Positions 7,001 through 62,732 of a stretch of 64,000 nt of DNA are shown here, piece by piece (position 1 is the first letter of the stretch; the number at the start of each line of letters is the position of its first letter). The position numbers and the translations under genes are program-made. The notes beneath the pieces were generated by a model. That model ran no database searches and was not told where the DNA came from. It saw nothing but the letters and a program-made list of their open reading frames with translations. The stretch is from Schmidtea polychroa (lineage: Eukaryota): the NCBI GenBank assembly GCA_044892525.1, contig CM097886.1:15004001-15068000 (forward strand), written 5' to 3'.

Positions 7001-7089
7001 TACCGGTATTAATACCGGGATCCCGGTATTAATATAATGAAATACCGAAATACCGGTTTTGAAAATTTGATCCGGTATTGCAAGCCCTA
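4027..7089 (+). mobile_element. Full-length autonomous hAT DNA transposon (3063 bp)
   Basis: Perfect 18-bp TIRs TAGGGCTTGCAATACCGG (4027-4044 and 7072-7089), perfect 8-bp TSD ATTACAAT (4019-4026 and 7090-7097), subterminal ATACCGGTAT/CCGGGATCCCGG palindromes, uninterrupted transposase ORF. Confidence 0.97.
4802..6799 (+). CDS. hAT transposase, 665 aa, ZBED-like
   Basis: BED finger (WFYF...CKKC...GSTSGLHTHLKTLH), catalytic motifs LTFDEWT, ITTDGASVM, C..H.IQL, TRWNS, and C-terminal dimerisation motif PPTSVESERAFS. No stops. Confidence 0.95.
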   Translation: MENYVFEEKSADENSVWFYFLREKKGQISKCKKCNKVIKTQGGSTSGLHTHLKTLHQINLKKRNAPSSNFLIEIEPEPSTSKVNKVSSGKITTFFVSETDNSLSAVLARMTACDGLSFNIFCTSVDIRKGLTARGYENIPKSINSIKNLVVQYSEKIRANMIKELESQILSEQRFSLTFDEWTSVKNRCYLNINVHAGIKKFWNLGLVRVQGSLPAEKYVALVEERLKLFQVSLNKHILCITTDGASVMTKAGKLICARKQLCLVHGIQLAVIKVLYINMIHQNLENEHSNCNEDDNQYTSDENDSDLDDNSLSILQENNAIDCLIIHEQIGPLIKKIRKVVKLFRRSPMKNDKALQKHVKEQFGKELNLIINSKTRWNSLLAMLERFVQLKNCIQKTLIDLNLNAKISFSEIDFSLASSVISVLLPIKLTVEACCRQDATLLSADAALLFMFNQLTEQNTALSNEFKEELINRIKQRRTDLSSLLQYLHNPTESADDDQNEIFNRINNATIIKIIINLLERLYTIDVIDIENIGASSIDVSELSADSEPEILSSMTMKEKLEMAISKKVDVMNTASGISKTMNSKVLYKVIKQELAYFEVEHIRGKYLQLVYDCLMSIPPTSVESERAFSAAWLLCTKIRSSLSDKTLDSLTFLRAYFKAKSQQ

Positions 7090-9290
7090 ATTACAATAGT
7101 AAATGATGATAATCAGAAGATAATAATTCCGCAGAAGATAGCGTCAAAAGTCGTACAGCATATGCACAAAGAACTCTGTCATTTAGGAGTTAAGAAAACA
7201 ACAAATTATATGAACGATTATTTCTTTTGGATACACATGGTGACCGATATACGAGATATTATAAAAAAATGTGATATATGCATGAAAAGGAAAGTTTTAA
7301 CAAGTAAAACAGCTGAATATTTAATTCCTAGAGTAATAATGAACTCGATTGAACAAATTGTAATCGATATTGCTCATATGAAGGAAACCAGAAACCGAAA
7401 CCGTTATTTAGTAATAATAATGGATCAGTTCAGCAAGATGGTTAGTTTAACGCCTACTCAGAACGAAGATGAAAAGACTGTATATCGTGTACTTTAACAC
7501 AATTGGATATACAAATTCGGTAAGCCAGCTTACATTGTTTCAGTTAGAGGTAAGGTTTTCGAGGGGAGTAAAATCAAAGAGTTAGTTGATAATTTTAACA
7601 TCGAATGGATATTTACTTCGCCTTATGATCATAAGTCTAATGGTTTAGTAGAACGGGAACTACGAACAGTTCGTGATATGATCGTGACATTTTTGAGTGA
7701 TGGTCGAACTGAAGGGTGTTGGAACGACATTATGCGAAATTTTGAATATTCCCTAAACTCAACAATACAGAATTCTACGGGATTTTCACCAATGGAAATA
7801 CTATTTGGAAGAAAGGTTAATATACATGGAAAGAATTCATTCATAGAAAGAGATGTGAAAGATACAGAGGTAACGGAAGAAGAAAATAATGTAATAAGGA
7901 AAGTAAACGATTCATAAAAAAAAGATTTTGCAGAATAGAAAGAGACAAAATACAAATACTCACATAAGATGAATGGAAATATGATATTGTTAGTTATGAT
8001 AAAATGCAAGGCCGACCAAGTATAACTATTAGAATACAAGACCAGAATATGGAATGCTTGTTCGATACAGGAGCTAGAGTAAATATAATGAGTTGGAGCA
8101 AATTTGAGAAACTTAAACTAACAACAACGGTTAATTCGTTGAGATGTGCAAATAATAGTGTTTTAGAATCGAAAGGTAAATTAGAAATAGGAATAAATGG
8201 CAGGAAAAGAAGGGTAACGTTTACGATAGTAAGATGTATGACTCCAGAGGTAATTGGTGGTATAGAGTTGCATAAAAAATTTGGTATGCAACTAAAGTTG
8301 CCAGTAGAAGAGATGGAGAAAACGAAGCAAGAGCACATATGCAGTATCGAAGCCAAATTTGGGAAGACAATAACGGAGATGGGACGATTTCAAAGAGCAA
8401 AGAATACTTTAAAGATAAATAACCCGATACTACTAAACATTATAAAAAAGAATCAAAGTGTTTTTATGACTGATAAATGGGACATTGGCTGCACAAAGCC
8501 ATTGAAGCATAAAATAGAAACTTAAGGAAAACCGCTAAATATTCAACCTTGACAACCAGTCAACTTGTAAGGTAAAATAGATGAAGCGATAAAAAATTTA
8601 TGGGGAAACAATATTATCAAAATGTGTAATTCGCCATGGGACACTCCATTAATATGCGCCTGGAAGAAAGAAATGCAAGATATCAGATTATGTCTTGATT
8701 TCAGGCAATTAAACCTAGTAACAGAGACAGGCATTCCCTATCCGAATATAGCAGAGATGTTAGATAGATTGGGTGAAGTAAAGTATTTCAGTTCGATAGA
8801 TCTTGGAAATGCATATTATCAAGTAGAACTAGAAGACGAATCATAGTTAAAAACGGCGTTTTTAACCAAATCAGGTCAATACTGTTTTAACAAAATGCCA
8901 TTTGGAATAGCAGCGGCACCAGGTACATTTCAGGAACTGACGGGAAAAGTATTAACGGGTACAAGATATGCAGCGGTATATCTAGACGATATTTGGATAT
9001 TTAATGAAACGAGCAATCATTACTACGAAGTCTTAAATGAAGTGCTGGATAAAATTGGAAAGGCGGGTCTTAGGATAAACCCTGAAAAGTGCCATATCCT
9101 TAAAGAGGAAGTCAAATCTTTAGGTCATATAATCAACAAAGATGGAATACAGGCGGACCCGTCAAAGCTAGACGCGATTATATCATTTGAAAAGCCAAAA
9201 TGTGTTAAGGATCTGAGAAGCTTCCTATGAATATGTAATTACTACAGAAGATTTATAAAGGAATACGGAAAAAAGGCAAGAGTTTTAACA
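7090..9290 (+). mobile_element. Degenerate Ty3/Gypsy pol remnant: integrase, then protease, then RT
   Basis: HHCC (HKELCHLGVKKT...CDIC) and core integrase (VIDIAH, FGKP.YIVS, SNGLVER, TGFSPMEILFG) at 7090-7917 in one frame with one stop. Protease CLFDTGARVNI (8004-8525). RT SPWDTPL, LCLDFRQLN, SSIDLGNAYYQ, MPFGIAAAPGTFQ, YLDDIW, ending at LRSFL(G)ICNYYRRFI. Confidence 0.9.
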
Positions 9291-10016: not shown

Positions 10017-12132
10017 AAACTTTTTAATAAATACAATATCAATTGAAAGGAAATCAGTAGGGAAATTTGAAAAAGTTCATATAATATATATAACTTGGTT
10101 ATTTTACATGGCGTCACGAACTAGTTTAGACTTTGCAAAATAAGTTTACACTTCCACGTCTTATCGAGATGTTGTCTAGTGCCTTACATAGATGATGATG
10201 ATTTAGGGAAACTAGCAAACATTTCAAATTTAGTTCAAATGTAAAATATATTCCATAAAGCAACTTTTAAGTTGTAACTTTTTTCTAAAAAATGCATCAG
10301 TGTGGGGAATTTTCATCCAAAACACTCCCTTTGACTACACCATTGACTCTACAATTATGTTCAATTCGTAATTTAAAATTTAAAATCAATTTTTTAACTT
10401 AAAATTATGTATGTCTTTCATTTTATTTATTCAGTGAACATAGAAATTTCACAATAATACTCTTTAAAATATAAATTTAAACAGGATTTTAACAGTTTAA
10501 AGTTTTGTTTTAAGTTTCACTTTGTATTTGATATTTAATGGTTTATATTTAAAAACAAAAGCAATGTATCAATCGTGATCTGTAAGTAATCGTAGTTGTG
10601 TTTAATCAATATCAGAAAACCTTAATAATCTCAGGTATGAGTATTACTGTATGATAAAATATTTTTCAATAATTTCATTTTTTATTTAAATTTAATAAGT
10701 TACCTTTAATATAAATTATGATATTCATTCTACTTAATATTCGCAAAACATAAGTAATAAATGAAGTTAACTGAATTATGCAATATAATAGAATATTATC
10801 CTTTGTATGATACGCTTAATTTTATCTGGTATGCAACTGACCTTACTAAATAGTTGCAGTATGTTCACGTGTTACTTGGTTCTTCAGCAGAATTTCATTC
10901 TCATAGTTATTTACAAATAATCTATGATTTTCCCTTAAATTAGCACCATCGAAATATAAAAAAAGTTTCGGTTGCGAATATATAGATTAAAGATAATTGT
11001 TAAGTTTATTTAAATTTTAGGAGTGTTGAATCTGTCGAAAAAGAACCTAATGTCATAATATACTGCAAATCTAAATGACAAATAAAAAATTTTACAAAGT
11101 AAATCTGCAGTATTTCACTCAATCACATTTTGATATTTGGATTTTGTTCTAAGTGATTTCACATTGAATTCAATTGTTTATTAAAATTGAAAGCAAATGT
11201 TAAATTATATAAGTTATCTAATTAATATAGTATTTCTTTAATAGGAAGTTCCGAGAAAATCTTTAAAAATTTTTATTTAATTTTGTTATTAACCAGCTTA
11301 AACACCACAGATAATAAACCATAATATATATCATAGTCAGTGGAGGTTTATTCCGCAAGCGGATATATACGTCATACTCATTATCTGAAAAAAGCAAAAC
11401 AATAAATAGAATACAAGTTGATTGACACGACCTCCACTAACGCCATATTGCGGATATAAGTTCAAGTTCGCTATAAGAAAATTTCTAGTTACTTAGCTCT
11501 TCGAACAACTGGAAAATAAAATCCTTGAAATATTTGGTAATTATATAAGATCCAAGAATTGATAGTTGGTAAAATATGGTATGTAATAGAAAACTTGTAA
11601 AGACCATCTGCGAGAATTTGATTTGACACTACATTCTCTTCCATACTTGTTACAATTACTTGGCTGGTGGGAGGTTGATATTGAAAATATTGTAGATCGT
11701 TGTAACCAACGCAACCTATCAAAAAGGAAATTATGTTAGTAATCGGATCACTTTGATACGCGTTGCCTAGAACCATTAGTCACGCACCAAATGAATGTTA
11801 GTCAGCGAAAAGCGAGCACACTATTGGGGTACTGCTAATGTTCTAGCGTACCTACTGGTCCACGCACTGTTGATGGGCGGCAAGCGCCCGGTCTCTTTTA
11901 TTTCTATCCCCTTAACGCAAACTATTTGGCTATCACGGAAATACACATTCGCGCTATTATGGTTCTTTCACAGCCAATAATAGAAAACCCAGTTTATCTA
12001 AATTATACATTTATTGATGCTTCATAAAAATTCATTTACAAGATATTTGCTTATATTAAATTGAATATTATAATTTGCAAAATTAACCGACTTGTCATAA
12101 AGAAAATAACCTTAAAACAAAATATTTATTTT

Positions 12133-15100
12133 TTAGTTATCAATGTAAAGGCTAGAACTAGAAATAATTCCTCTAAAAATACATTCTTGAGTTTGTTGAA
12201 ATAAAACTGCTGTTTCAAAATCTAGCATGACCTTTGCTGCAGATTCACAATTTCGAAGTAGTTCGTGAAGTCTTTGTAAACATCTAACAATGTCTCCACA
12301 TTGCGTATCTGTCACTTTTACAATGTCCGAAAACTTTGCCCCTGATGCCCACATTCGTATTGATTCTGCTAGACCGCAATTTATCTGAATTTCATGGCCA
12401 ATTATATTAAACTTTTCTTGAGATTTGTTTAGCTTAAAAATTAATAAATATTTTAAGATCAATACAAATAAGTTTTTACTTCGGCTACAATTTTAAAAAT
12501 TTCAATCATAATTTTTTGTAAAGATGGAGGGTTCTCTTTAAAATTGAATTCAGATGTTTGATTATTATTAGATTTCCCTTCAAATATTATGCATGCTAAT
12601 GATGCTGCAATGTCACATGGTAATGCATTTTGGAATATTCCCGACAGAATTATTTCCGTCACAACAACTTCATATGTTTCAATTTCACAAGCAATTCTAC
12701 CTTTTAATTTAATTGTGTCTGCTTTTGGATGTATAAAATTAAATTCCTTTAAAAAGGCTACTTTATTTCTATATTCAGGTAAAAATGCTAGGTTTTCATC
12801 TGATAGATTTTTTTGTAACTTATCAATTGTTACTGTCGTTTTTTCAATGACATCAACTTGTTTGATATGACTATTTAATGATTGGCACTTGGCACTTGGG
12901 TGAAGTAATAATGTACTCTGGGAACTTTCATAAGAAATGTATGTTTGAATAAGAGATTTCAAATGAGAATCCTAAAGAAAAAAAGATAACTGTAGGTTAA
13001 AATAACCGTTTAACTAACCTTTATATTGAGTTCTTTTTCATAGTTAGCCATTTCAATGGATTTACAAACATTGTCACAAATAGAGAGCATAGCATTTTTC
13101 ATTTCAAGATTACCCTCTATCCACTGTGACCAACTAGTCCTACGAAAAAATCTTGTCATCCAATATTTCTCTAAATTTTGTACATTGATTTTTATTTTCG
13201 TATTACATATTTTTTTAATATCATTAAGCGTGACTGTAAGAATTTTTGGATAGACATCATGTATCTACAGAAGGTTTGTGATTATTAATCAGAGTTCAAT
13301 GAAAAAATGATAACCTTTCTACGTTCCTCTTTATCATCAGGTCGTATTGGAACCAAAAGATCATCTTTTAGTGATTCATTTTCATCTTTTTTGTTTTCAT
13401 TAATCAATAGATCATATGTAAGGATTTTGATTTTGAATTTATTATTGTCCGTTGTCTGGTGAATAATACTTAATATGATTGAAGGTATCAAATATCTTCT
13501 TTGACTATCGATACCTGATACACCAGATGAATCGAGAATAACTATTCGACCAGGAATTAAAAAATTTTGAATTTCTTTTTTATTTTCGATTATTTGATTA
13601 ATATTTTTTCGTATTAATCGATACTCTATGCTTTTCTAAAAGGGTAATCAAGTCAGAGTTGATGTTCGAATTGAGAATTGGGATACCTGATGGTACAACA
13701 TCACATCCTCAATTTGACAATCATTGGTAGTGCATTGTAAACCAGTACCGTTGAACAATTTTAATTGATCTGACAATCTTTGATATTCTTGGCAGTTGTT
13801 GTCATATTTTTTCAATCTGTCAGCTTCAATAAAACTCTGTCTAATCATGTTCTAAATGATAATTGTTAAAATATTTCAAACATTTAGTCGAAAACCTGAA
13901 TATTAAATTGTTTGTTTCTATATAGACTTAAAATCATGTTATATGAAATTTTGAATTTAGATTCCAACTGTCCAACAGATCCTATTAGAGTTTTTTTCAA
14001 CTCGTCTTGGGAATATATAATTGTTCCAGGTTTGATTATAATTATAACATTTCCAATTTTGTCAAGACCTCGCCTGCCTGCTCTACCAGCCATTTGTGTA
14101 AATTCTCCTGCTAGCAGGAGTCGTTTCTTTAAACCATCGTGTTTTTGAATGCTATCAAAGACAACCGATTTAGCTGGCATATTCACTCCTACTGCAAAAG
14201 TTTCGGTTGCGAATAAAATTTTGACATACCCTTGGGAGAAAAGTATCTCTACTATCTTTAATAAATTTATTTATCAATAACCTTTTTAAAAGAAATTAAT
14301 TTGTACTTCTTTTAATATTGGAAGTAATCCTGCATGATGCATACCAAGACCTCTCATGAGCATTTCTTGCATCTCGATAACTTGAGGCAATTTTTTATCT
14401 GATGGATTGTGCATTTTTTTGTTAATTATTTCTTTGAAATACCTTTTCACATTATTTTTTTCAGCTAATATATTATTTTATTTCCATTAACTATAGTAAT
14501 AAATTTACTTTCATTTAAGAGATTAAGAGATTTCAAATCATTAGCTGTACCTTGAATTCTGTTTCGTGAAAATAGAAAACAAATTACGGGCAAGTTATCC
14601 GCTTCTTTTAATAGCTCAAACAAGGCCAACCACTGGTTATGATCTTTATTTGCAGAATTGCAAAATCCAGTTTGTTTAAGTTTCAATTCTAAATTGAATA
14701 AATGATAATACAAAAAGCAATTTATTTCATAGCTTACCGGGATTTTGATATTTAGGTTGTTTTGAAGAAGATTTCACTATTTTATTTGGTTGTTGATTTG
14801 AATTTGATGGTTTTGATTGAAATTTCTTCATAGATTTTTCATTATTCATTTTAATTGCTTCTTCGGCTTGTTCATAACCTGTTATTATTTGTTCAATATC
14901 AATATAAGTAACCACTTCTAAAATTTTACCTTTGATTAAGAAATTTTTGTTGTTATCCATCACTCGAAACAATTGATCTCTGTTGTATCGGCCAGTTCCG
15001 GTAAATAAATACATTTCTAGTGGTACCGGTCTTTTGGTGGTGCTGATAATTTGAATTTGTGTATCGCGTATTCTACCAAGCCATTCTGCAAATTCCATCG

Positions 15101-16221
15101 TGTTTGGAACTGTTGCGCTTAACATTACCAATTGAATTCTCTTCGGTAAAAGGATCATGATTTGTTCCCAAATATGACCACGGGAATCATCATTCAAATA
15201 ATGGACCTGTAGTTATTAGGTTGAAAGGAAAATGACAAATTAAATGTTTACTTCATCCATTATGACTACTTCCAAGTCTTGGATGGTGGGACAGCTATTC
15301 TTCAGCATGTTGTGAAGAATTTCTGTTGTCATAACAAGGATATATCGATTAGAACCTGTTTTTATATCGCCAGTTAGCAATCCAACATTTTCATTGCCGA
15401 AAGTAACTCTAAATTACTTAAATTAATGAAAGACAATATTATAATGTACTTAAATTCACGATATTTCTGATTTGAAAGTGCTTTAATTGGGCTAGTATAA
15501 ATAACACGAGCACCCCTGTTATGACACATGGCGATTGCATATTCGGCCACAACAGTTTTACCCGCTGACGTGTGAGCAGCCACAAATACTGATTTAGAAT
15601 CCTCCAAAGCTAGAATCGCTTTTTTTTGAAACATGTCCAACTCAAATGACCATTCCCATGCAGGATTAGGAATAAGCTCTTTAAAAGATTTACATGGCTC
15701 GTTTAAAATTACCTAAAATATGATTAACTTGCAATCTTTTAGAAAGATTAAATTCACTTGACGTGCGTAAGGTTTGTCCATATCTCTCTTGAATAGTTTT
15801 AAGTGATAGTTAGATTCCAAGTGTAACTCTAAATTTTCATTTATTTCTTTTTTTGGAATTTCATTCGAGTTCTTCAATATGAACTCATTAAAAGCTCCTG
15901 TGGGAATGCCTTGATTCATAAAATCGGGATTAGTAAGATATGGTAACTGAACAAAATTATTCGATAAATTTGTGGAATTTATTTAAAATCAATTAGAATT
16001 CTTCAATGGGTAATAAAATTTATTTAAATTAATAATTTTTTCACCTTTTCTATGATATTTGAATTGTTTATATCATTTTGTAAGAATAACGGTTGAATTT
16101 TCACTCTTGGGAATTTTAAGGACACAATGCTTGTATCTTGGAAGTTAAATTTTATCGTATTTGTATAGAATAATGACTTAATAGAGTCCAAGTTTAAGGG
16201 ATTGCAATATTGATTGAGCAT
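12133..16221 (-). CDS. SKI2: Superkiller RNA helicase SKI2/SKIV2L (DExH), multi-exon host gene
   Basis: Spliced translation gives [116 protein letters not shown] and [10 protein letters not shown]...SLY. Frame-preserving GT-AG introns: 15713-15757, 15409-15449, 15207-15251, 14879-14929, 14689-14737, 14465-14508, 14256-14306, 13852-13895, 13636-13686, 13265-13314, 12972-13018, 12433-12479. The first intron is unresolved (possibly 15947-16044). The long N-terminus and VFVAAH motif favour Ski2 over Mtr4. Confidence 0.92.
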
Positions 16222-17167
16222 AATTTCTATTTAATATATTAGCAGAAGATGAATATTTAAAATAATTTTTGAAATTAAATAGTTAACATAGAATGTCATT
16301 TGTAATATTAAATATTTAAACAAGTTAAATTTCAATAAATTCACTGAAGTCTTAAAATTCGGTACTAAATCAACCAATAGAAATAGAAAATTTTAAGGTT
16401 TAATTAAAGTCTCTAAAATAATAAACAATATTAACTATTCATGTTCGAAAATTTGTAAATGTACAGCCAAAGTTACAGATAACGAGTCTCACTCGTTGTC
16501 TATATAAAATAAATGTATTCATCATAAAATAACAGTAAAATTAAATAATTTCCATATGTTAAAAATGTTCAAATACATCGGAGCCCAAGGGGTTAACTAT
16601 ATTTTTGATGAATTTTGGTTTAAATGAAAAAATTAATTGCAAGAAATTAAGAATATTTAGATATCAGCAATTATTATATAAAAATTAGTCGCAGAGACAT
16701 TCAGTTCTAAAAAAAATTGTAAAGCAAAAACTATCCTAAAATATCCTAAAAAAATTTTTATATGCAAACTAGTTTCTTGTTAGGTGATTTAAATATGAAG
16801 AATTCTGACAAAATTATAATTAAAGGTGAAAAGCATATGAAATTAAAATTGTTACAACGTAAAATTAATGAAAGACTCAATGTTACCTATGATGTATCTG
16901 AGAATAAAAAATACTTGACTTTTTATATCAGGTCGTCCTAAAAGTGACTTTTTTTTATGGACCTGAATTTTTAAAACATATACAATTTATTGTGAACATT
17001 TAAATAAGATTTTCTTTAAAATATTATGATATGTATACTTTTCTGTTCAATTTTATTTTTCTAAAAAGTCTTAGCAGCTAGTTCTTAAGTATAATTATCT
17101 CGTTTTCTGATTATATATATTGAAGTTGGTGAACCTCTTATTTATTTAAGATTATAATGAAGAAATT

Positions 17168-17741
17168 GGTAGCCGACGAGTTTTTTGAAAACGAGTTTAT
17201 CGAAAACGAGTTTATCGAAAGCGAGTTTATCGAAAAATATTATTTTTAAGGAATTAAAAATTTTTAAATTTTTTCTTTATATGCAGAAACTTAAAATGTG
17301 TTTATAATAGCATTTGTTGCAAAAAATTCGTTTTAGGTAAAAATATATTGAAAAAGGGTTAATGCAAAAAATACTGAAATAATGAGGTTTAAGATAAAAA
17401 ACACTGAAAATTTTTCCTAAGAATAACCTGCAACGGGTTTTCCGCAGGTTTTCATTAATTGTGGGAAATTCCCTTCATTTATGCATTTTTTGATTTTGTG
17501 TTAATAAGAAAGGGTTTTTATATTTTTGAATTTAATATATATTCAGTTATCAAGTAGTGCGGTTATTAGTGATAATAATTTAAATATTTAAAAAATTAAT
17601 TTGAAAATGGATTTATTAGTGAAAAAGGAAAACAGAAAAAAAATTGATAAACTCGTCATTCGATCAATTGATCATTCGATAAACTCGCTTTCGATAAACT
17701 CGCTTTCGATAAAATCGTTTTCGATAAACTTACCGGGAATC
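17168..17741. mobile_element. MITE/foldback-like element with inverted arrays of a 15-bp subunit
   Basis: AAA(A/G)CGAGTTTATCG x3 at about 17188-17235 and its reverse complement x4-5 at about 17645-17730. Candidate 8-bp TSD AAGAAATT at 17160-17167 and 17742-17749. Non-coding. Confidence 0.55.
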
Positions 17742-17840
17742 AAGAAATTATACACAAATCCTTTAAGATGAGGGTTCATTACAATTAACAAATATAATAT
17801 ATTAAATAATAACAATTAAAATCTGTAACAACTATACTTG

Positions 17841-30340: not shown

Positions 30341-31064
30341 TTCATTCCTTATTTTTTGCATCTAAAAATTGAAGCTCTTTCATAATCAGAAAGTGACTTT
30401 CTAAGTGACATAACCCTTAGTTTAAAATTTTAATATATAATAACAGATTTTAAAAATGGCGGGATCAAATTTTACTATTAATTAATAAATATTACATTTA
30501 TTTTGTCCGAGCGATTTTGATTAAGCTGTTGGCGTATGTGGGGAAAATAGAAAGTATACATACATAGTTATCATACACGTCAAGCATCATGATTCCGCTC
30601 AGACCATTCCCGCACACACTCCAGATGATCATTCACAAATTCCCACGTATGAGCCCGTGGTGATGTTCCACGTTGGTGCTGCTCACACGGGTTGGAAAGA
30701 GTTAGCAGGTGAGCCCCTGTCTTAGGACTACTCCTAACCCTTTCTCGGGTCGGGTTCCATGGCGCCCTAGAAGGTCTTACCCGGTTCTTTGCACAAAAAT
30801 TCAGTCCGACCCTGGTCCAAGGGGACGACATTTAAGCCTCTACTACACTTTCAGGATCCTGCTCTTCCGCAATTCAACCATGGCAATTCATACATTCAAT
30901 TAGCACAATCAAAAAAAAATAGAACAGTTGTATTATATCGAAAACATCAAGATACATCCATCATTACGTAAATACATATAAAACATTAAGGATTAGACAC
31001 AAGATGATATCAATTTTTAAGTTTATTCGTAATGGCAGAGAATCGAGACCCGAGAAGAAGTTTG

Positions 31065-31826
31065 CTACGAGAATGCTTCTCCTTCTGCAAGCATCTCGTC
31101 GATGTCAACCGGCAATCGTTGGTTGGAAATGTATTTAATGCCTTCTGCCGGAACGATGCGAAAGATTTCCTTTGTGGGAATTGAGTGACTAGACGATATC
31201 TCTTTTATGGTGGATTTGGCTGCAGATAGTGACGCTTCGAGTGCAGCCATTGCCTCTCGGCGTTTCTGATTTTTCTCGGCCCGGGTTGGCCGTTTTCGTT
31301 TGCGAGATGGAGGAGGGTTGTCCGTGTTCGAGGTGACGACAGGAGCCACTAGGATTGGAGCTAAGATCGGATCAGTAGGTCCACCCACCAAAGGTTGATA
31401 ACCAGATAATGATGGAGCCGGGACGGGTGGTAGATATGAACCATGTCCTTGGCAGTTTGTGGTGGTCGATTGAGATACCTGATGATGAAGTGGGAAGACA
31501 TTTGTATTCTCCAAGACGGGGAATTCCCGTACCCGCTTGGCCAGTTCCGCCTCCGTATAAACCTTGTGGAGGGCTTCGGACTGGGCTTTAATAGTCAATC
31601 GTTGGTTTCGGCTCTCCTCTAGGAGGCTATCTCTGCAGTGTTCTAGTCGGAGGATCTTACTCCGCTCCTCCTTCATTTGTGGCGGGGAGAACCACGTACC
31701 CTCATAGAGATCGATTCTCTTCTTCAATGCCCCGATGTATAGGTGAAGTTGTGCTATGTCGGCATTTTTATCCGCACACGAGAAGCACGGTCGAAGTTCC
31801 TTAGTGTTGCTGGAAGATGTCGTCAT
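31065..31826 (-). CDS. Orphan 253-aa protein (CxxC, coiled coil, Pro-rich linker, basic NLS-like KRKR motif) inside E2
   Basis: Uninterrupted ORF, visibly more GC-rich than its flanks, with AATAAA about 35 nt after the stop. A homologous decayed copy lies at 61557-61910. Confidence 0.7.
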   Translation of the reverse strand: MTTSSSNTKELRPCFSCADKNADIAQLHLYIGALKKRIDLYEGTWFSPPQMKEERSKILRLEHCRDSLLEESRNQRLTIKAQSEALHKVYTEAELAKRVREFPVLENTNVFPLHHQVSQSTTTNCQGHGSYLPPVPAPSLSGYQPLVGGPTDPILAPILVAPVVTSNTDNPPPSRKRKRPTRAEKNQKRREAMAALEASLSAAKSTIKEISSSHSIPTKEIFRIVPAEGIKYISNQRLPVDIDEMLAEGEAFS

Positions 31827-34274
31827 TCTAGAAAATCAATCGGTTTTATATCGAGTCAGGACATTTATTTTCGAATGATATAGTCGAGTTTAGGACACAA
31901 GCTGGCCATCTTATCCATCATCTCACCCAATGACAATCCACAGATCTCATCATCCATCTCCGTTTACTGGCATTCCACTACAAACATTCAAATTCACTCA
32001 TACAATCGTTTACGAAAAAGGAACGGGGATTTGATTAAGAAACGCCTCTGATCTAGGTCCACTTCCTTATCATGTCGTTATTCTCTAATTTTTTCATTAC
32101 TGTCTCAGCTTTCTATCGATGTAATGACTTCAAAACGAGACTAAAATCCCCGACAACTTATGGCTAATTATATGTTAATCTACGCTAGGGGAATTATAAT
32201 AAGAAAATTTAGTTAGAAAACTGAATATTAAATTAAAATTTCCAGTGATTTAAATTATACGCGGAATTTGTCGTCATGGAAACATTTATTTAGTTGTACG
32301 TTCTGATTGGATAGCTAGAGGTGTCAATCTTCCGATCGCAATTATAATTGTGCATTAGCTGTTATTTTCGAGCAACTGCCTATACTATTGGAAGAGATTA
32401 TCGCTTGTCTAGTAATTTGGAGAAAAATTCCAATTCCTCACCCTCGTCCATTGAAAATTTATTTCTGAAGAAAATCCATGTACTCACGTGATCATTACAT
32501 CACTAGCATTTCCTACCAAGCCGTAGATTCATTTGTACACCGCGCTACGTGGGAGTGACAGAAGTGTGTGTGTGTGTATACTATGACAGAATAGAATGGA
32601 TTACATAATCGACTTTCCGGCAAGAAGTAGTAGACAAATTGGGCATCCGATTTATCAGCTCAAACAACCGACGATGTAGCAGAGTGCGGAGTAAGTTGAC
32701 TTTGTTATCAAATTTCATTTCATGATGTTGACTCAGGATAATGATTATTAGCTGGTTCACTCGACTATTCCTACCCACAGAGCGATATATCATCAATTTA
32801 ATTTAACATTATCCGATGACCCTGTTGGCTGACGGTAACTGGCTATTGCAGATCAATTGAATACGGTTATCGTTGACGATAATTTCCCTCGACCTCATAG
32901 TAAGTATTCCTAAATTTTTATCGTACCGTGTTTACCTACCCGTCAGAGAGATTATTCCCTGCTGGTGACTGTGGCTCAAAGACAGAAATTCGACATTCAA
33001 GAGTACATCGATGGTGGATGTAACTGCTAACAACTGGGTGACAGATTTATAAGAAAAGAAAATCGAATCCCGCAGGAGGTGAAGACATTATACAATATCT
33101 CTGACTGATTCGTGAAATGGTGATGGTAATGCCTCCGAAAAATGCTCTAACGACGACCTGACTGTCATAAGGATCCTCTTTGCCTGCGTGGATTACTATT
33201 AGCTCAATGTCAATATCAAATGTCTATCTCTGTCTAAATTCTTGGCCATTTCTAAAATTCGTTGACACAGATTTTTTTGGAATTTTCGCCATAAGAATGG
33301 AACTAATCGCAGAACGATCGCACTCGGTGGAAATAATTTTACTCCGCCAACGCATCTCAACTACTAAGTCTCTTCACCCCTGATGACACACCCAAGAAGG
33401 CATTCATTTCTGCCGCCATTCTTGCACCGTCATGAGGGACCAATCGACTTATTCAACTTCAATATCTTTAGCATCATGTATGATTATAAAGCAATAAAAT
33501 CATGAACAAATAAATAAATATAAAAATTCTTACCCGGCAACCATATCATCTGGCATCCAAGTATGAGTTTTGTTTTTCATTTTAACCATCAAATTAGCAA
33601 ACATAAATAATTAATAAACCAAAATAAGTCACCATACCTAGAGCTTCGAAAAATTGGAACGAATTGAATTTTAAAACTGATCTCGTAATAAACTAGTCAC
33701 TAGTCGTTCGGTAACTTCGTGTAAATGTAAGTTCTGGAATCTCTGAAGTAATGCTTGTGAGTATGGTTCTGTGGAATATCTGTGATCTGTAATTGGTAAT
33801 CTGTAATCGTGAAAAATCAAAGTGGGTTAACTTCTTAACAATTTTACCTGTAATCGTGAAAAATCAAAGTGGGTGTCTTCTAATTTTTCACGTTACATAT
33901 ATAGTATTTTTCGTCCAATAAGGACGCAGCTTGTTTGTAATTTTCTATTTATTATTATTTTTTTATGTTTTTATTATAATGTATTGGGTTTTAATAACTT
34001 AACTCATTTCTTATTATTATTTTATTTATTTTTCTTATTTTTCTTATTTTTTCTCTTATTTTCTGCGGACTTATTGTTATTTTAATGTAATATAATTTTT
34101 GTTTTAATTAAACTTAGAAATGGTTTTATTTTTTATTTATTTCTTTAACTTTCCCGTTTATTGGTATAAGTATACAATAGGGGGGCCACTTTTTTATAAA
34201 TAAAGATATATAGATATAAATATTTAAATATATTAAAGTAATTAAAACATAGTTACGTTTATATTTACTTGGTA

Positions 34275-35177
34275 TTACACACCACCAAAATCATATTTTT
34301 CACGTATTTGATTGATTAATACATCAAACGCACGCTCATTTCGACAAAATCTTCTTCTCCACATGAATTCATCTAAGTACGAAGGAATGAAGCTACATCT
34401 AGTCCCAAACATATACTTAAATTTCCTTTTACATAAGGCCCACGAACCTTCTATTCCATTGGTGTTAACGCCGGTTAGGGGATCAATAAAGTGTTCCGAG
34501 TGATTCACCCACTGGTGTACATACGGTCCCAGTCTAGCTAAAGGTGTAGATGCATTTGGGTTTCGTCGGGGACCACCAGTATAGGTCGAGAATTCATCGG
34601 TCCAAATAGTCGTTCCCGGAAGTACAACACGCGAAAAAATCGGAAAAATTTCTTTTTGGGTCCTATTATCAACGAATTCAAAATGTACATTCTTCGTAGT
34701 ATAGTCTAGAATTCCGAAAACCCACCCACTGCGGGCATTCCGTCTCGGTTCGCCACGATTATGCAGCAAATTCATTAACTTGGACTCATCCGCTTGCACT
34801 ATATGATCTACTCCACCAAACAATAAAGGTTGAGATACTAACTTCCAACTGGCAATATCTCTGAAATACTGGTACCATTGAATTATAGTTTTTTTGGAAA
34901 TATCGGTGAAAAGCTGAACTTGTTTAATGGAGCATTCCGCGCCCCAAAAATACATCAATAGAAAAAGCTCACGAATATGCAGTTTTGAATTACAAAAAAA
35001 ACTCCCGTTTGTAATTGTTTGCTTGATTCGATGAGGATTTACGCGTGCCCGACTCCGGCAAACAAATATATATTCATTCACGACTTTGGAATCTTTAACT
35101 AGTTCCATAATACGCCCGCATCTCGCGCAGGTTGGATCGGCTCGTAACAAACCTACACTTTGGCAATGTCTTATCAA
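34275..35177 (-). CDS. Merlin/IS1595-family DDE transposase, at least 300 aa
   Basis: N-terminal CxxC, GSFF..SKL, GGVDHIVQADES, WVFGI, GTTIWTDE, VNHSEHFIDP.TGVNTNGIEGSW, SYLDEFMWRR. No stops; the true start may lie in or next to the N gap. Confidence 0.9.
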   Translation of the reverse strand: MIRHCQSVGLLRADPTCARCGRIMELVKDSKVVNEYIFVCRSRARVNPHRIKQTITNGSFFCNSKLHIRELFLLMYFWGAECSIKQVQLFTDISKKTIIQWYQYFRDIASWKLVSQPLLFGGVDHIVQADESKLMNLLHNRGEPRRNARSGWVFGILDYTTKNVHFEFVDNRTQKEIFPIFSRVVLPGTTIWTDEFSTYTGGPRRNPNASTPLARLGPYVHQWVNHSEHFIDPLTGVNTNGIEGSWALCKRKFKYMFGTRCSFIPSYLDEFMWRRRFCRNERAFDVLINQIREKYDFGGV

Positions 35178-35213
35178 AGACAGTGTGTCTCTTGAAAGTT
35201 CATATATTTGCTT

Positions 35214-35612
35214 NNNNNNNNNNNNNNNNNNNNNNNNNNNNNNNNNNNNNNNNNNNNNNNNNNNNNNNNNNNNNNNNNNNNNNNNNNNNNNNNNNNNNNN
35301 NNNNNNNNNNNNNNNNNNNNNNNNNNNNNNNNNNNNNNNNNNNNNNNNNNNNNNNNNNNNNNNNNNNACATCTTTTAAATAAGGATATNNNNNNNNNNNN
35401 NNNNNNNNNNNNNNNNNNNNNNNNNNNNNNNNNNNNNNNNNNNNNNNNNNNNNNNNNNNNNNNNNNNNNNNNNNNNNNNNNNNNNNNNNNNNNNNNNNNN
35501 NNNNNNNNNNNNNNNNNNNNNNNNNNNNNNNNNNNNNNNNNNNNNNNNNNNNNNNNNNNNNNNNNNNNNNNNNNNNNNNNNNNNNNNNNNNNNNNNNNNN
35601 NNNNNNNNNNNN
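35214..35612. other. Assembly gaps (N runs 35214-35367 and 35389-35612)
   Basis: N characters flanking a 21-bp island, in the 5' non-coding part of the Merlin. Confidence 1.
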
Positions 35613-36855
35613 GGCCCCCCTATTGTATACTTATACCCGTTTATTTATTTCACTTTTTTGTTCATTCTATTTTTATTTTATCCGCTGTGTGTCTTAAATC
35701 GTTTTATTTCTAAATCTTAGGGGTTTATTGGGTTTTATTTGGTTGGGTTACTTATTCTTATTCTTTTGTTAGTATTTTACTGTTCCTTCCTATTTACTAA
35801 TGAGATATGATGGTAATTTATATATTTCTTATTTTCATTTATTTTTCGAGGTTTACCTTTCTATTCGTTCCAGTTTTCTCCTCTCTGAAATTTAGCCCAA
35901 CAAAGCTTTTAAAATTGCAAAATTTTGCCAATATTGCATGTGACACAGTCGATTAACCTTAAAAAATATATTAAAACAGAATATTAATTCAAATTCTTTG
36001 CTTTTTCCTCAGCTGTTTTAAAAATTTGATCCTTCTTATTTTGTTGAATATCAGTTAAGGTTTCTGATAAAGATGAATTTATTTATTGTGGGAAACCGAT
36101 TTTTTTGAACAAAATTCACATTTTATAATAAAATTTGAAATATTTTTCAAAAAAATGCGCCCCTTAGCCTAAGGTGAATGCCATACTTGCCACCCTCGTT
36201 CCTAGGTTGTATATATACACACATATATATAATAAATATAATTTTATTTATTAAAAAGAGGTTGAAGACTATAAATCAGTAATATATCGATGTTTTTTAT
36301 ATTCACGAATTTTCGGCACTGTCTTTTTCAAGGGAATTTTATATTACTTTATCAAAAAAGTGTAGGTACATTGTTGAGTTGTAATTATTGTTCGGCAGGA
36401 TAGAACTATAAATCTAACTTTACTAGTTCTTGATCAGAATAATAACTCAACACATTAACTTTTTATTATTACTACAAATTCCGATTGTTCAAATTTTCAC
36501 CGATACAAATGATCCTTTGCTTGATAGTATGGGAAGGTAACTCTAAGGGAAACCACCTCAAGTAATGAAACTAATCTGATTAAATCAAATAGTAATCTCG
36601 GTCTTTTTCTTTTCAAAACCTCTACTTTGGCTTTTCATTATTTGCTCGGTTTTTTCTTCGACCAAAATGGTAGTTTGACCAAGTTTTTGGTTCATTTTGT
36701 ACAAGGCTCTTCTAGCGCCAGTTACTTTAAAATTGAACGAATCGCTCAAGATTAGCTAAATGTTTCTTCAAATTTAATTTATTTTGGTCTTAGTTTGACA
36801 AGCTGACATTTCGTTTGTCAAGCTTCGGGATCTATACCATTTTCGTTTTAAAATG

Positions 36856-44791: not shown

Positions 44792-47397
44792 CAGGGATGG
44801 CAATTACATGGCACGCGTGCCAAACTTGGCACGCAGACAAAAAACTTCTGGCACTCTAAGAAATTTAAAAAAAGAAGTAGAAAAAATTCTTATTATAAAA
44901 TAATTACTGCTTTTTAAAAAAAAATTTGGACCCAAAATTTTAATCAACGGCTTTGAATTGAATTCTATATTTTTTTCTCTAGTTGGCTTTGCGTTATTAA
45001 ATAACGCAATTAATTATTAAATTTAGTTTATTTTAGCACTTTGATAAAAACCTATTTGCCAAAATAACGGTTATTTTGTACATACGTATATGGTTGTGTT
45101 ATAATTCTTGTATATTCTTACATCAGTTTTTAGTTTTGTTTTAACTTGTGCAGTTCAATAAAATTTGTGTTTAATTTTAAATAAAATTTATTTTTTGCTG
45201 AATTAAAATGGTACCAAAAAAACCAAAACTACAAGATATTCGTAGCTTTGTACTCTCTTGGACTGCTGATTACGGTTTTGTTAAACATGGAGATAAAAGT
45301 CGGTGCGGTCTGTGCTCTGAAATTATTGTATGTCGAAAGTCTTCTATTAAGCGACATTTTGAAACCAACCATAAAGAAATTGCCGAAAAAAATATTGAAG
45401 AAAGAAAAGAACTAATTTCTCAACGATTAAAGATAGCTGAAAATCAATCGAATTCATTATCAAAATTTGTAAAAACCAACAGCAATGTTACAGAAGCTAG
45501 TTTTGAAATTTCTTATTTGATTGCTAAGCAATCAAAACCATTTTCTGATGGAGAGTTTGTAAAAACAGTTATGTTAAAAGCGGCCGAAAGTTTGTTTCAA
45601 GATTTTAATAATAAAGAAAAGATTATTCAAAGAATTCGAGAAGTCCAGCTAAGCCGAAATTCAGTTAAAGATAGAATTTTAAAAATAAGTGCGAATATTT
45701 CTGATCAACTTTACAACGATGTTAATAGCTGTGACTACATTTCAATTTACCTCGATGAATCAACAGATATTAAGTCATCTGCCCGATTAGCAATCATTGC
45801 ACGTTATCCGAAAGATAATGAAATGCACGAAGAACTTTTAAAATTAGCAAATATCCCAGAAAGAACAAGAGGTAGTGATATTTGTGAAGTTGTATTCAAT
45901 GAATTAAACAAACTTAAAATAAATATTAAAAAAATCATTTCTGTAACGACAGATGGAGCTCCTAATATGACTGGACCAGAGATAGGTTTTGTTAATTTAT
46001 TTCAAAACCTAGTTGGTCATCCAATAATAGGCTTTCATTGCATTATTCATCAGCAAGTTCTTTGTGCAAAATTCGGAACTACCGATTTCAAAGAAATATC
46101 AAAACAAGTTAATAAAATCATAAATTTTGTAGTTGCACGCGACATGCATAAAAGACAATTTAAAAAACTTTTAAATGATATGGATTGCGAATACGATACT
46201 CTCTTAATGTGCAATAGTGTACGTTGGCTAAGTCGAGCGACATCCTTAGAACGATTTGTGAATTGCTTGGAAGAAATTCGACTTTTTTTACACGAATTCG
46301 ACAGGGATCGTTTTAAAGAATTATATGATACAGAATGGTTAACAAAATTAATGTTTTTACCGACGTAACATTACATTTAAACGTTCTTAATAAAAAATTG
46401 CAAGGACGAGGAAAAACAATTGAAGTTATGTTTGGATTGATAAAGGGGTTTGAAATTAAATTAGATATTTTTGCTAGAGATATCGCATCTGGAAAACATA
46501 ATAATTTTCCGAAACTTAAAAGTTTTTTAAATGAATCTACAATTTTCAAAAAAACTAATTGGAATTTTAATTACGAATTTTCTAAAGTTCTTGAAACTAT
46601 AAAAGAACAATTTTCAAATCGATTTAAAGATTTTAAAAGAATTGATAGGCTGTTGAAAATTGTAAATTATCCGGACTTATTCGATATACAGGATTTCGAT
46701 AACAACCTTATTAATTGGATGAAATTAGAAAATTTAGAAATGCAGACAGTAGATTTGCAATCTAATCCTATTTGGACACAAAAATTTGTGAATATGCGAA
46801 AAAATATAGAAGAATTGGAATATCATCGATTGTCACAGGATGGAGAGTCGGAATGCCGCATTGAAAACTTGATATTGGAAGTGTGGAATAGTATGCCAGA
46901 AGCATTTGCTTCTGTAAAAAAATTAGCAATCGCAATGTTAACCATTTTCGCATCCACTTATTACTGTGAGTCTTTTTTCTGTACTTAATCATGTACTATC
47001 AAAGACAAGAAACAGATTAACAGAAGAAGACTCAGCAGCTTGTATTACCTTACAATCGACAACATACCATCCTGATATTAAAAACCTTGCAAGTAATATG
47101 AAGCAAAAAACTTCTAACAAAATTTAAGAATTTTTTTATTAAATTTATTATTAAACTTTATAATTTTTTTTACTATTTCTTTATATTGAATAAATATTAT
47201 CACATGAACTCAAATATTGAAATTTATTTCTGTTTTCTTGTGAATAAAAAAATGAATAAAAAAATGAATAAAAAAATGAATAAAAAATGTATATATAGGT
47301 ACATATAACAAATAAAAGTTACGAGGGCACGCGAAAAAAATTGAATTTAAATTTAGTTTATTTTGGCACTTTGATAAAAACCTATTTGCCATCCCTG
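44792..47397 (+). mobile_element. Full-length hAT (SPIN/GTF2IRD2-like), 2606 bp
   Basis: 12-bp TIRs CAGGGATGGCAA and perfect 8-bp TSD CTTTATAG (44784-44791 and 47398-47405). Confidence 0.95.
45208..47120 (+). pseudogene. GTF2IRD2/SPIN-like hAT transposase with two frameshifts
   Basis: C..C...KRHFETNH, KPFSDGEFVK, LDESTDI, TTDGAPNM, HCIIHQQVLC, VRWLSR and STYYCESFF. Frameshifts near 46360 (MFLPT vs (F)TDVT) and near 46980. Confidence 0.9.
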
Positions 47398-55074: not shown

Positions 55075-55273
55075 AAAAAAAATTAAAGTTTATTTTAATA
55101 CAATAAAATCCTATATAATAGGAATTACAACAATTAAAAAGAGCTGGTGCTCAATCTTTCTTCTTTTATAATTTTTATTTGATAATAGGCATCTTAAGCT
55201 ATAAAGTTTAAAATCGTAGATATAAGTGTAGTATAATAAATTGCTGGTATGTTCCCTTAAAATGTGATAACTT
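55075..55273 (-). mobile_element. Short 5'-truncated copy of the RLE retroelement 3' end, inverted
   Basis: The reverse complement matches 56670-56850 (last ORF codons, 3' UTR, T-rich tail) with about 10 substitutions and one indel of about 20 bp. Confidence 0.88.
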
Positions 55274-56850
55274 CCTCTAATTAATGAAGAAAACCTATAT
55301 ACCTATCTTGGAGTAGATATAGATATGAAAAGAAGCTACGACATCGATAAAAAACTAAATGAAGCTTTAATGGATACAAAGGATATAATGGAAAGTAATT
55401 TACATCCATCACAGAAGCTATATGCATATAAGATATTTATTTATTCAAGACTTATCTTTTGTTTCAGATACTGTATCCTAAACCATATGGTTTTAAACAC
55501 TGATAGGAATAGATCTGTGCAAATGAGAGATAAACAACTTGGATATGATCAGAAAATAAAAATAATGCTAAAAGATATGGTCAAGGATAAATTTCAAAAC
55601 ATGAATAATTACATTTATGCCAGTTGTAAATATGGAGGATTAGGAATAACCCAAGCTATGAATGAATACCTGATTCAAAGTGTGGTTCACTTTTTGAGAA
55701 TGCTCAATTCTAAAGACATTGACTTTAAGAATATGATTATAAATGAATTAATATGCTCCAGATGAAACGGATCATGTATTGATATTGCGATCAAATGGAT
55801 GAATAGGGAAACTACAGTAACTGGTATGAAATAATCCATTTTGCTCAAATTTAGAAAATCAGTTGAACGAATAAAAGAAAAATTCAGCATCTTGATACGT
55901 CTAAAGATTCTTGATGATGAATTCGTCTTGGAAATAAAATATGAAGAAAGATTAAGAATTATGAATAAAGATAATATGGAAGAAACTTGCTCAGAAATAC
56001 ATGACCTCATGAGCTTGATATACGTAGAAAGATGGCAAATTATGGTCTGCCAGGAACATATTGCAAAACGTCGGTGAAAGTAACTATGCGTCAACCTTCA
56101 TATAATCTGACTGCCTGACAGATCCACAATTTTATTTTTTGATTAAGGCTAGAAATGATATGCTGAACCTGAAATATAGCCCATTCAGACTAAAAGAAAA
56201 TCTAGATATTATGTGTAGACACTGCAAAATAATTGCAGAAACGAAGGCGCACATATTTAATCATTGTACTGAAAAAATAAATGCCAGAAGATTAAAACAT
56301 TCAAATGTCCTAAAAGTTGTTGGTGAATTTTTTATGTCAATAGGTATAAATGTGGATATCGAAACCTCTCCCATTGGAATTGAAGCCACACTAAAGCCTG
56401 ATTTATTAATCAAACCACAGAAAAAAGCTATTTCATATTATCGATTTAAAAGTACCATATGAAGATAATGAAAATTTCAAAAATGCAAGAAAGAAAAACT
56501 TTGAAAAGTATCAACATATTGCCTCACAGATTGGTAAATTAAATTGATGTCTAACAGTGGTCTCTGCACTAGTAGTGGGAACACTTGGCTCATGGGATCG
56601 AGAAAATGACTATATTGGTAAAGATAGGCTTATCAAAACAGGAAACTAAATGCCTTGCCGAATTATATCAAGTTATCACATTTTCAGGGAACATACCAGC
56701 AATTAATTATACTACACTTATATCTACAATTTTAAGCTCTATAGCTTAAGATGCCTATTATCAGATAAAAATTATAAAAGAAGAAAGATTGTTGTATTTC
56801 CTATTATATAGGATTTTATTGTATTAAAATAAACTTTAATTTATTTTTTT
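55274..56850 (+). mobile_element. 5'-truncated RLE-type non-LTR retrotransposon (NeSL/R5/Utopia-like)
   Basis: RT end YTYLGV, thumb YASCKYGGLGI, CCHC knuckle CRHC....ETKAHIFNHC, RLE motifs LKPDLL / IIDLKVPYE / EKY / VVGTLGSWDREND, and C-terminal SSYHIFREH with stop at 56704-56706. Several frameshifts. Confidence 0.9.
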
Positions 56851-61267: not shown

Positions 61268-62732
61268 TGGTGGGTTACTGATGATCAAGTATTTTGCTTT
61301 TTAGTGCTGTTTCCAGCGTAACCCAAGATACAGCATTGTCTTACCACTTGATACCTGTTGAGTAATTAACGTTGGTACTGTATCAAGCGGGTGAGCACTA
61401 TAATTGTCGGGTACTCTGGTCCACGGACTACCGTTAGAAGGTATGTGTCCGATTTAATCAGGTCCCTTACTGTAATTGTTTTCCCAAACACCCTTATACA
61501 AGCTTTCATCAAATGATCATAAGTCACAGTAGCACATACGTTAATTTATTAAAACCCTAAGGTGCTGGAGTAGATTTTGTTTTTTCTGGCTTCTCTTGTT
61601 CTGCCAACCAGGCTCTCTTCAATTTTTCGCGGGTGTTTCGCCCTAACCGTTTGCGCTTCGGTTTAATTGGTGGATATATTTCGGCCAGCTCTATGTGCAA
61701 TAAGCGAATCTGAGCTGCGGTAGTCTCATTGATGAATTTCTGGTTCAACTTGACTTCCATCGTGCGGATCTGCATCTTTAGCGCACGGATTTCCCTTTGA
61801 TCCTGCTTTGTCTGGGTCTGGAGTTGTAAGATCTGGGCCGTCCGTTTTTTCATCTCAGCCTGACTATATCAAGTACTTTCGAATTCGCGGCACTTTCCTT
61901 TGAGTATAGCATTGAGAATAAAAAAAATTATTGAGTTAAACATAGATTATAACACATAAAACAAATATAAATCAAAGAACGCTTACTATTATTCCGAAGT
62001 TTTTCAGGTAGGTTTTACAGCAAAATAAAATTTGGCATAAAGTGTTTTTGTGATTAAAATGCGTTGGTATATATACCTATTTTTGTATGTGCAATTACAC
62101 GTGTATGTGTTGATGTATTAAAACAAACTCGAATTCTTTTTTAGAATTTTCTATTTTCAAATTTTGATGATTTTAATGGCAATTTTAGTGCCATAATTTT
62201 TATTTTTAAATTTTTATTCTTTAATTATTTTTTGTTAAATTTTCCTCCACGATGGATTTGGGCAATTCCAGAACATTCTACATTAAATTAAAGTTACTTA
62301 TTATTTTAATATTGTTTTGTCTAAATTCTTTTTTCAAATTTTTATTTCTAAAACTAATTTATTTATTTTTATTAAATTTTGCTGATTTACATGGCTTTTA
62401 TGATGAATGTCACCATTTTTATGAACTGTTCTGGAATTTCATCTAGAATTTAGTATTTTACTATCTTTCGGTGTCATTGGAGTCTGTTTTTTGTAATTTT
62501 ATGTTTCTCTGTCGTATTTGAGTTAGTTTTCTTGCAATACTTCTTGCATTTGTGAGATTTTATTTAATTTCAGTGTTTTTATTTTCTGTTGTGTTTTCTT
62601 AATTAATATTGTTTATTTGGTGTTTTGATTTTTATATTTAGCTAAACTTATTGCTAAGCATGTGTGCTATGTACCAACACATTTCGGTCACAAAATAAAG
62701 TTTTGGGTCTAGAAATCAGTTCTAGCCCAACA
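61268..62732 (-). mobile_element. TG(G/T)TGGG...CCCAACA insertion E4 (1465 bp)
   Basis: Ends TGGTGGGTTA / TAGCCCAACA and TSD CTTG/CTCG (61264-61267 and 62733-62736). Removing it restores the hAT frame EAHDTSSYLQELV. Its first 12 nt (TGTTGGGCTAGA, minus strand) are identical to E1. Confidence 0.85.
61557..61910 (-). pseudogene. Decayed, internally shortened homologue of the E2 orphan ORF
   Basis: LKGKCREFEST*YSQAEMKKRTAQILQL aligns without gaps to E2 LKKRIDLYEGTWFSPPQMKEERSKILRL. The KRKR..R motif is shared, and AATAAA follows the stop. Confidence 0.65.

Follow-up and report, generated by a model that had tools for sequence, protein, structure and literature searches.

Does the 253-amino-acid open reading frame (ORF) at positions 31065-31826 (-) of a stretch of Schmidtea polychroa DNA belong to a real gene, and if so to a gene of what kind? 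The stretch (64,000 nucleotides (nt) of assembly GCA_044892525.1, contig CM097886.1, positions 15,004,001 to 15,068,000; hereafter the window) contains two repeats, E2 and E4, which an earlier note had read as members of one family sharing a Gag-like or other nucleic-acid-binding protein. We find that the ORF, which lies in E2, is a real gene and is not Gag. Judging from its sequence context, it is almost certainly the final exon of a gene with introns that lies within the long terminal repeats (LTRs) of giant Burro-type Gypsy elements. E2 and E4 are not two members of one family; they are LTRs of two different families, and both their identity as LTRs and the status of the ORF as a spliced terminal exon had been missed.

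E2 is a solo LTR of family 1, and its type of sequence forms both ends of ~26-kilobase (kb) elements. Because a primer-binding site follows the 5' LTR in these full elements, the ORF can be placed on the sense strand, where it ends ~540 nt before the LTR end. ORF-bearing copies are often paired ~26 kb apart, and such pairs are the two LTRs of a single element. E4 is a relic from family 2, whose intact LTRs are 4.9 kb long, end in CCA and lie ~30-33 kb apart; over the families, the spacing of LTR pairs is 26-33 kb. The hallmarks of Gypsy LTRs are present (TG...CA ends, a 4-bp target duplication and a primer-binding site). Pfam searches of pieces from a single element of family 1 and another of family 2 identified zinc-knuckle, fusion-glycoprotein, protease (PR), reverse transcriptase (RT), RNase H (RH), integrase (IN), ankyrin and TRAF/MATH domains in both; the family-1 element also matched Retrotrans_gag, and the family-2 element BIR. 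Giant size, a gag-MATH-env-PR-RT-RH-IN-ankyrin polyprotein and TRAF/BIR accessory ORFs are hallmarks of the Burro type, and in architecture the parent elements match the published description of planarian Burro elements. A profile of the LTR protein built from three families found 0 copies in the six internal 10-kb stretches searched.

The sequence readings on which the earlier note rested proved accurate: the frame in E2 is open, the E4 frame at 61557-61910 reads as claimed with its TGA (61869-61871) over W45, the E2-E4 match has 10 identities over 30 residues, and a basic motif is present in both. Its conclusion of homology also stands, although not on the direct match, which is borderline (tblastn E = 0.023 within the window). 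E4 reached domain E-values of 0.27 with a family-1 profile and 0.095 with a profile of families 1 and 3, and reversed-sequence controls did better (0.07 and 0.018). As the direct match is not significant alone, homology was shown through other genome copies. E4 shares 64-86% identity with members of its own family, and profile-profile alignment (hhalign) of family 1 against family 2 gave 95% probability (E 3.5e-8; reversed control 0.25%), with 100% for families 1 and 3 and 96% for families 3 and 2. By these profiles the third family bridges the other two, and all three are homologous. The first two residues of the E4 frame (AI) are intron sequence left by a deletion.

A search of the same genome with the protein gave 150 scored matches among 7,010 candidates, at 80-100% identity; no stop was found in 140 of the 150, which as the best-scoring matches form a biased set. 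The motif TWFSPxxM occurs at 2,324 places in the genome and a control pattern at 0. We also sampled LTR ends by primer-binding site, using the first 30 of 1,061 exact sites. Family 1 accounted for 7 of the 30 (4 with an intact ORF, 2 frameshifted and 1 partial), family 2 for 13 (exon open in 11) and the third family for 3, all with the ORF intact. The remaining 7 belong to a fourth class, in which the ORF is absent from the last 1.5 kb; its LTR is ~1.6 kb long and had no profile match in two copies looked at further. Elements of this class may have the gene supplied in trans. The class is young, with copies 98-99% alike, and has the same primer-binding site as the other families (L176:6807-8450; L148, L155, L157, L162, L167, L172 and L175).

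The ratio of nonsynonymous to synonymous substitution rates (dN/dS) was estimated pairwise by the Nei-Gojobori method for 47 of 50 family-1 loci and 27 of 45 family-2 loci, with 17 duplicate loci skipped beforehand and copies with stops or split matches excluded. Across distance bins, family-1 dN/dS fell from 0.20 to 0.07. The 5 closest family-2 pairs had a value of 0.47, after which dN/dS in that family fell from 0.17 to 0.08; synonymous sites were saturated in the top bin. Values of ~0.015 were obtained for codon columns 26-50 and 76-100 of family 1, and of up to 0.24 for the linker. The picture was the same for copies that had been sampled by primer-binding site and hence independently of the ORF (for example, dN 0.10 at dS 0.98). 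The dN/dS check over genome copies that the earlier note had proposed therefore returned values of 0.07-0.2, far below 1, and by this measure the LTR protein is under purifying selection. The suggestion of past selection was right in substance and too weak in its tense: changes private to single copies (87 synonymous, 53 nonsynonymous) still have a dN/dS of 0.20. Of the earlier interpretation, the analysis supports a protein that is element-encoded, under purifying selection and made up of a coiled coil and a basic motif; it does not support the Gag-like part, as the parent elements carry a separate Retrotrans_gag and zinc-knuckle region. Gag was also rejected as an identity on the protein itself, which had no Pfam match at E<=1.

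A splice acceptor precedes the exon. In family 1, a pyrimidine tract and YAG stand 0-1 nt before the ATG in 29 of the 29 loci printed, despite diverging upstream sequence. The family-2 exon starts without an ATG and has YAG/TG in 35 of 39 loci; the donor in its LTR ends in A (nt 737), and removal of the intron joins this A to TG, creating an ATG. Introns have also been lost exactly. One 33.6-kb family-2 element has two LTRs that both lack precisely a 3,357-nt GT...AG stretch, and the family-1 copy L141 lacks precisely the upstream long intron. The halves of L141 are 91-100% identical to relatives, its junction is spanned by 1 of 40 scored matches (L141 itself), and in a close relative the halves lie 2,168 nt apart, from GTATGT to TTCTAG. 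Exact intron loss in two families is best explained by reverse transcription of spliced RNA. We infer expression from a spliced mRNA from the conserved splice sites and these genomic copies; the losses would also fit a gene in U3 spliced from read-through RNA.

Searches for further junctions gave little. Contigs from sequencing runs (X7 and X8, one sample, presumed RNA, no silent control) covered the ORF of related copies at a depth of ~5, with 0 across the intron. A family-2 spliced-junction pattern was at background in the genome (33 matches versus 46 for the control), and 2 of 20 loci looked at were genuine, both from one element. A second family-1 junction pattern had 5 matches versus 5 for the control, comprising 1 true intron-less LTR, 1 ordinary acceptor and 3 unrelated sites, and a pattern linking the first mini-exon straight to the ORF had 0 matches.

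Several further observations concern the introns. E2 lacks ~233 nt of intron that its closest relatives hold (between 33563 and 33566 of the window). Within 33801-33870, the mini-intron is flanked by a direct repeat of 20-25 nt, and an inverted repeat whose sequence differs between subfamilies directly follows the TATA box. A noncoding island in the long intron (33367-33454 and 33528-33537), with donor-like sites, is conserved across family-1 subfamilies and is possibly an alternative exon or an RNA element. Family-2 LTRs hold a second ORF of ~120 amino acids inside the long intron, with its own acceptor (L163:2608-2970 (-); L081 LTR nt ~3380-3745). It has a helical acidic stretch, no Pfam match, a dN/dS of 0.21 (34 pairs, 27 copies) and a terminal PRKRGRPRK, which we take to be AT-hook-like.

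The AATAAA that the earlier note had placed near 31030-31036 is at 31022-31027, and such a motif is not general after the ORF (Table 1). AATACA, AATATA or AATAAA occurs ~85-165 nt past the stop in 69 of 70 family-1 loci, and by position the AATACA at this site in E2 is the more likely poly(A) signal.

The protein has two conserved parts. W45, P48 and E71 are invariant in 35 aligned sequences, and for residues 9-116 a parallel, in-register homodimer is predicted that extends over residues 14-89 (dimer score 0.62 versus 0.01 for the best control; runs agreeing in at least 96% of contacts; predicted local distance difference test score (pLDDT) at least 82). In calibration, 21 of 30 solved pairs passed the mark for a dimer, as against 0 of 23 single chains. 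For eukaryotes the figures were 17 of 29 pairs, with 1 of 7 among those lacking an older relative, and 0 of 30 single chains. The prediction supports dimerization of the N-terminal domain. A CxxC at the predicted start of the coil (residues 14-17, window 31775-31787) is present in families 1 and 3 and absent in family 2; in a parallel dimer, two such motifs could share one bound metal ion. After a variable linker, all three families have the basic motif, with 10 arginine or lysine residues in 17 in 22 of 22 aligned genome copies. In this genome only 4-6 of these are arginine. The motif is arginine-rich in 7 of 13 distant relatives, four of which have 8-11 arginines in an almost pure run (for example, RRRPNRNRRRRERRR); this arginine-rich form presumably resembles the motif of Rev from human immunodeficiency virus (HIV).

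These relatives came from a search among 1.84 billion representatives, which gave 14 matches, 13 of them with the core; match P0003, a repetitive sequence matching the linker only, was left out of the alignment. Of ten relatives looked up, nine were single gene models without a name, and most of these seem to be fusions with common host domains. Public gene models P0002, P0004-P0006 and P0008-P0014 carry the exon, apparently fused to unrelated host genes, among them a transporter, a protease and a phosphatase, and these fusions appear to be annotation artifacts or exonization. A word-indexed homologue search with the protein returned 0 of 700 candidates, and one with the 35-row alignment returned 1 of 7,995, which was already known. 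No host homologue was found in these searches. The view that the protein falls into no known family was upheld in Pfam (nothing at E<=1 for the window ORF; sub-threshold generic coiled-coil matches only for the family-2 protein), in the PDB (5 profile matches, best E 0.45) and in the Atlas clusters (best 0.83 and 0.88, under the 0.9 lead level). Hepatitis delta antigen, which combines a coiled coil with basic RNA-binding segments, was among the nearest named Atlas clusters (HDV_ag PF01517) at 0.77, a chance level for the tool. That score, its absence from the core-domain results and the lack of an alignment speak against a relationship.

Two conserved RNA hairpins lie near the 3' end of the LTR. 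In families 1 and 3, 15 of 36 base pairs change on both sides, a count matched in 0 of 500 shuffles, with the structure derived from the same alignment used for this covariation test. The single-sequence fold of the region is no better than that of shuffles (z-score -0.35), and in the LTR ends of family 2 covariation is slight (2 of 58 pairs). Rfam had no match in the window at the gathering score and none in 30500-34200 at E<=1. The structured block is a candidate binding site for the protein.

What might such a protein do? Our leading interpretation, which we advance tentatively, is a Rev/Rex/Rec-like regulator of the element's own RNA. The predicted coiled-coil dimer would bind element RNA through the basic motif, and the bound protein would allow full-length RNA to persist unspliced and be exported from the nucleus. 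Transcription would start downstream of the TATA box, around LTR nt 540, and end just past the ORF. In this layout a short U3 would be followed by an R of ~3 kb, which would contain the gene, and by ~400 nt of U5. Each LTR, including solo LTRs, would then be a complete small transcription unit. A short spliced mRNA would be made first and its protein would then favor the long RNA, which would have to keep the LTR introns and read through the first poly(A) site; LTR introns are retained in nearly all copies. More doubtful is the broader proposal that a flatworm Gypsy element independently evolved the regulation of complex retroviruses. In that case, the LTR would be a self-contained, alternatively spliced regulatory gene for a Rev-like RNA adaptor (two genes in one family), and thousands of solo LTRs could supply it in trans and would not be inert.

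Several points weigh against a Rev-like role. The mixed lysine/arginine motif fits the consensus for a bipartite nuclear localization signal equally well. A scan with one pattern for leucine-rich export signals found none common to the three families and no match at all in 2 family-3 proteins, and no sequence similarity to Rev, Rex or Rec emerged from Pfam or the PDB. The hairpins are situated downstream of the likely poly(A) signal and beside the primer-binding site, a place in which structures for packaging or priming would be expected in any case. Both ends of the transcript are placed from sequence. Finally, 7 of 30 LTR ends belong to the class without the ORF, and the gene is therefore not required in cis by every element. 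Given the lack of detected homology and of a shared export signal, our claim is that the protein works like Rev, not that it is Rev.

Other roles draw on much of the same evidence. A transcriptional regulator resembling Tat, Tas or HBZ, whose dimer would use the basic motif to bind promoter DNA or a 5' RNA hairpin in a feedback on the LTR promoter, seems to us somewhat unlikely. The predicted parallel dimer with a basic region would suit it, as would the inverted repeat after the TATA box in several subfamilies and the second selected family-2 ORF with its AT-hook-like end. However, the basic motif lies 25-85 residues C-terminal of the coil, an arrangement unlike that of basic leucine zipper (bZIP) proteins; there is no conserved activation domain, and the family-2 protein ends soon past the motif. 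In the E2 subfamily, moreover, the inverted repeat is different and begins only ~12 nt after the TATA start. The near-invariance of the family-1 core (dN/dS ~0.015) is unlike the fast change of an arms race, and this, together with the lack of any host homologue in the homologue searches, speaks against an antagonist of host silencing or signaling. Such a protein would be a nuclear coiled-coil decoy that binds a protein of the PIWI-interacting RNA (piRNA) pathway, of chromatin or of an immune pathway, and its basic motif would be used solely for nuclear import. We consider it unlikely, even with TRAF/MATH, BIR and ankyrin genes on the same elements, thousands of solo LTRs that could supply the protein in trans, one LTR class without it, and Burro elements named as PIWI targets in the sections of PMC8532177 consulted.

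Less probable again is an accessory of the particle or integration complex (Vpr-like or a nucleocapsid helper), which would pack with the long RNA or carry DNA into the nucleus. A basic, predicted oligomer conserved in elements of ~26-33 kb is consistent with this, and the covarying leader hairpins could be packaging signals, but zinc knuckles are already present in Gag and a separate short spliced LTR transcript better suits an early regulator. As for the view that the ORF is a piece of Gag, a gene captured from the host or a product of chance, the weakness of the direct E2-E4 match and the lack of a transcript junction in the sequencing-run contigs are what could be said in favor. This explanation is very improbable and largely refuted by dN/dS values far under 1 (including copies sampled irrespective of the ORF), by conserved splice sites with exact intron loss, and by the lack of a match to Gag or a host family.

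The coordinates of the features are collected in Table 1. Elsewhere in the window, ORFs at 12459-12971, 13884-14270 and 14727-15212 fall within 11000-15300 (-), which by motif reading we take to be exons of a host Ski2-like RNA helicase gene. Relics of DNA transposons with inverted ends were observed at 4037-7092, 45017-47391, 55075-56847 and 17166-17743; ORFs at 4706-6799 and 45202-46988 are hAT-like, and 7063-9230 holds a decayed Gypsy pol. The Merlin-like transposon in E2 has an 8-bp duplication and 25-bp inverted ends and sits upstream of the putative promoter.

Table 1. Features of the LTR gene and its surroundings in the window
Feature	Positions	Strand	Evidence or remark
E2: solo LTR, Burro-type Gypsy family 1, TGTTGG...CCAACA ends	30527..35902	-	95-97% identical to other solo LTRs
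4-bp target-site duplication AAGC	30523..30526, other copy 35903-35906	.	
Two conserved RNA hairpins, putative U5	30643..30745	-	Covariation
Splice-donor-like GG/GTAAGA, downstream of putative poly(A) site	30775..30784	-	GTAAG invariant in 21 aligned LTR ends
AATACA at position-conserved hexamer site, putative poly(A) signal	30929..30934	-	AT-rich context
AATAAA, subfamily-specific	31022..31027	-	<=200 nt after stop in 25/70 family-1 loci
Terminal coding exon, 253-aa protein	31065..31826	-	Open in 140/150 best-scoring copies; dN/dS 0.07-0.2
Basic motif RKRKRPTRAEKNQKRR, residues 175-190, putative RNA-binding or nuclear localization	31257..31304	-	
Conserved core, residues 14-89, predicted parallel homodimeric coiled coil interrupted by TWFSP	31560..31787	-	
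Long intron (GTATGG...TTTTCTAG), 1,810 nt in E2	31828..33637	-	Equivalent 2,168-nt GT-AG stretch missing in L141
Predicted 47-nt mini-intron (GT...AG), direct-repeat bounded	33801..33847	-	Donor and acceptor kept in printed subfamilies; absent in L141
Putative LTR promoter, reverse CCAAT and TATA box	33896..33921	-	Same position (LTR nt ~490-530) across family-1 subfamilies
Merlin/ISXO2-like DNA transposon, not part of gene	34163..35637	-	DDE_Tnp_IS1595 E 1e-13
E4: internally deleted solo-LTR relic, family 2	61268..62732	-	70-77% to both ends of intact family-2 LTRs
E4 remnant of homologous exon, stop at 61869-61871	61557..61904	-	Acceptor and first codons deleted

ORFs are found in the LTRs of retroviruses as well, in U3, as with sag of mouse mammary tumor virus (MMTV) and nef of HIV. 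Like these, the planarian ORF is protein-coding and duplicated in both LTRs. Unlike these membrane or signaling proteins, it appears to have promoter, introns, exon and poly(A) signal in one LTR, probably with a very long R. The sections consulted of PMC2661877 name sag and describe MMTV Rem as translated from a doubly spliced mRNA, and those of PMC5568270 describe Rev-like proteins as combining a coiled coil, an arginine-rich motif and an export signal. Like HIV Rev, Rex of human T-lymphotropic virus (HTLV), Rec of human endogenous retrovirus K (HERV-K) and MMTV Rem, as portrayed there, the LTR protein would be a small regulator made from a spliced mRNA, here inferred from genomic copies. A predicted coiled-coil oligomerization, a basic motif that is arginine-rich in distant relatives, and putative structured RNA in or near the LTR would be further likenesses. 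It differs in having no detected sequence similarity and no conserved export signal, in that the entire gene lies within the LTR rather than overlapping env, and in that its host is an invertebrate Gypsy-type element.

The element type itself is already known. Burro/GYPSM1 of planarians are giant Gypsy-like LTR retroelements with a polyprotein and accessory ORFs (PMC6431247, in the sections consulted), and our elements share with them the 26-33-kb size, gag, MATH, an env-type fusion protein placed between gag and the protease, RT-RH-IN, ankyrin, accessory ORFs with TRAF and BIR, and thousands of copies. The gene, intron and second ORF inside the LTR set our elements apart, none being described in those sections. 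The LTR-internal gene is apparently undescribed: we found no LTR-encoded gene for Burro in the literature consulted, including sections of PMC6431247, PMC8532177 and PMC11410931, and the original descriptions (Grohme 2018, Jurka 2007), which lay outside our search, may show the ORF.

Solo LTRs are usually taken as noncoding leftovers. In this genome, the core motif of a protein under strong selection survives in at least 2,324 LTR copies, many of which apparently retain promoter, introns and poly(A) signal as well. The exon also seems to contaminate gene models, as most distant matches are fusions with ordinary host domains. For the elements, a Rev-like protein offers a testable answer to how the intron-retaining RNA of a ~30-kb element passes the first poly(A) site and exits the nucleus, and RNA interference and in situ tools exist in planarians. 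Rev-like control has been described for vertebrate complex retroviruses, and an independent version in an invertebrate Gypsy element would, if true, be notable.
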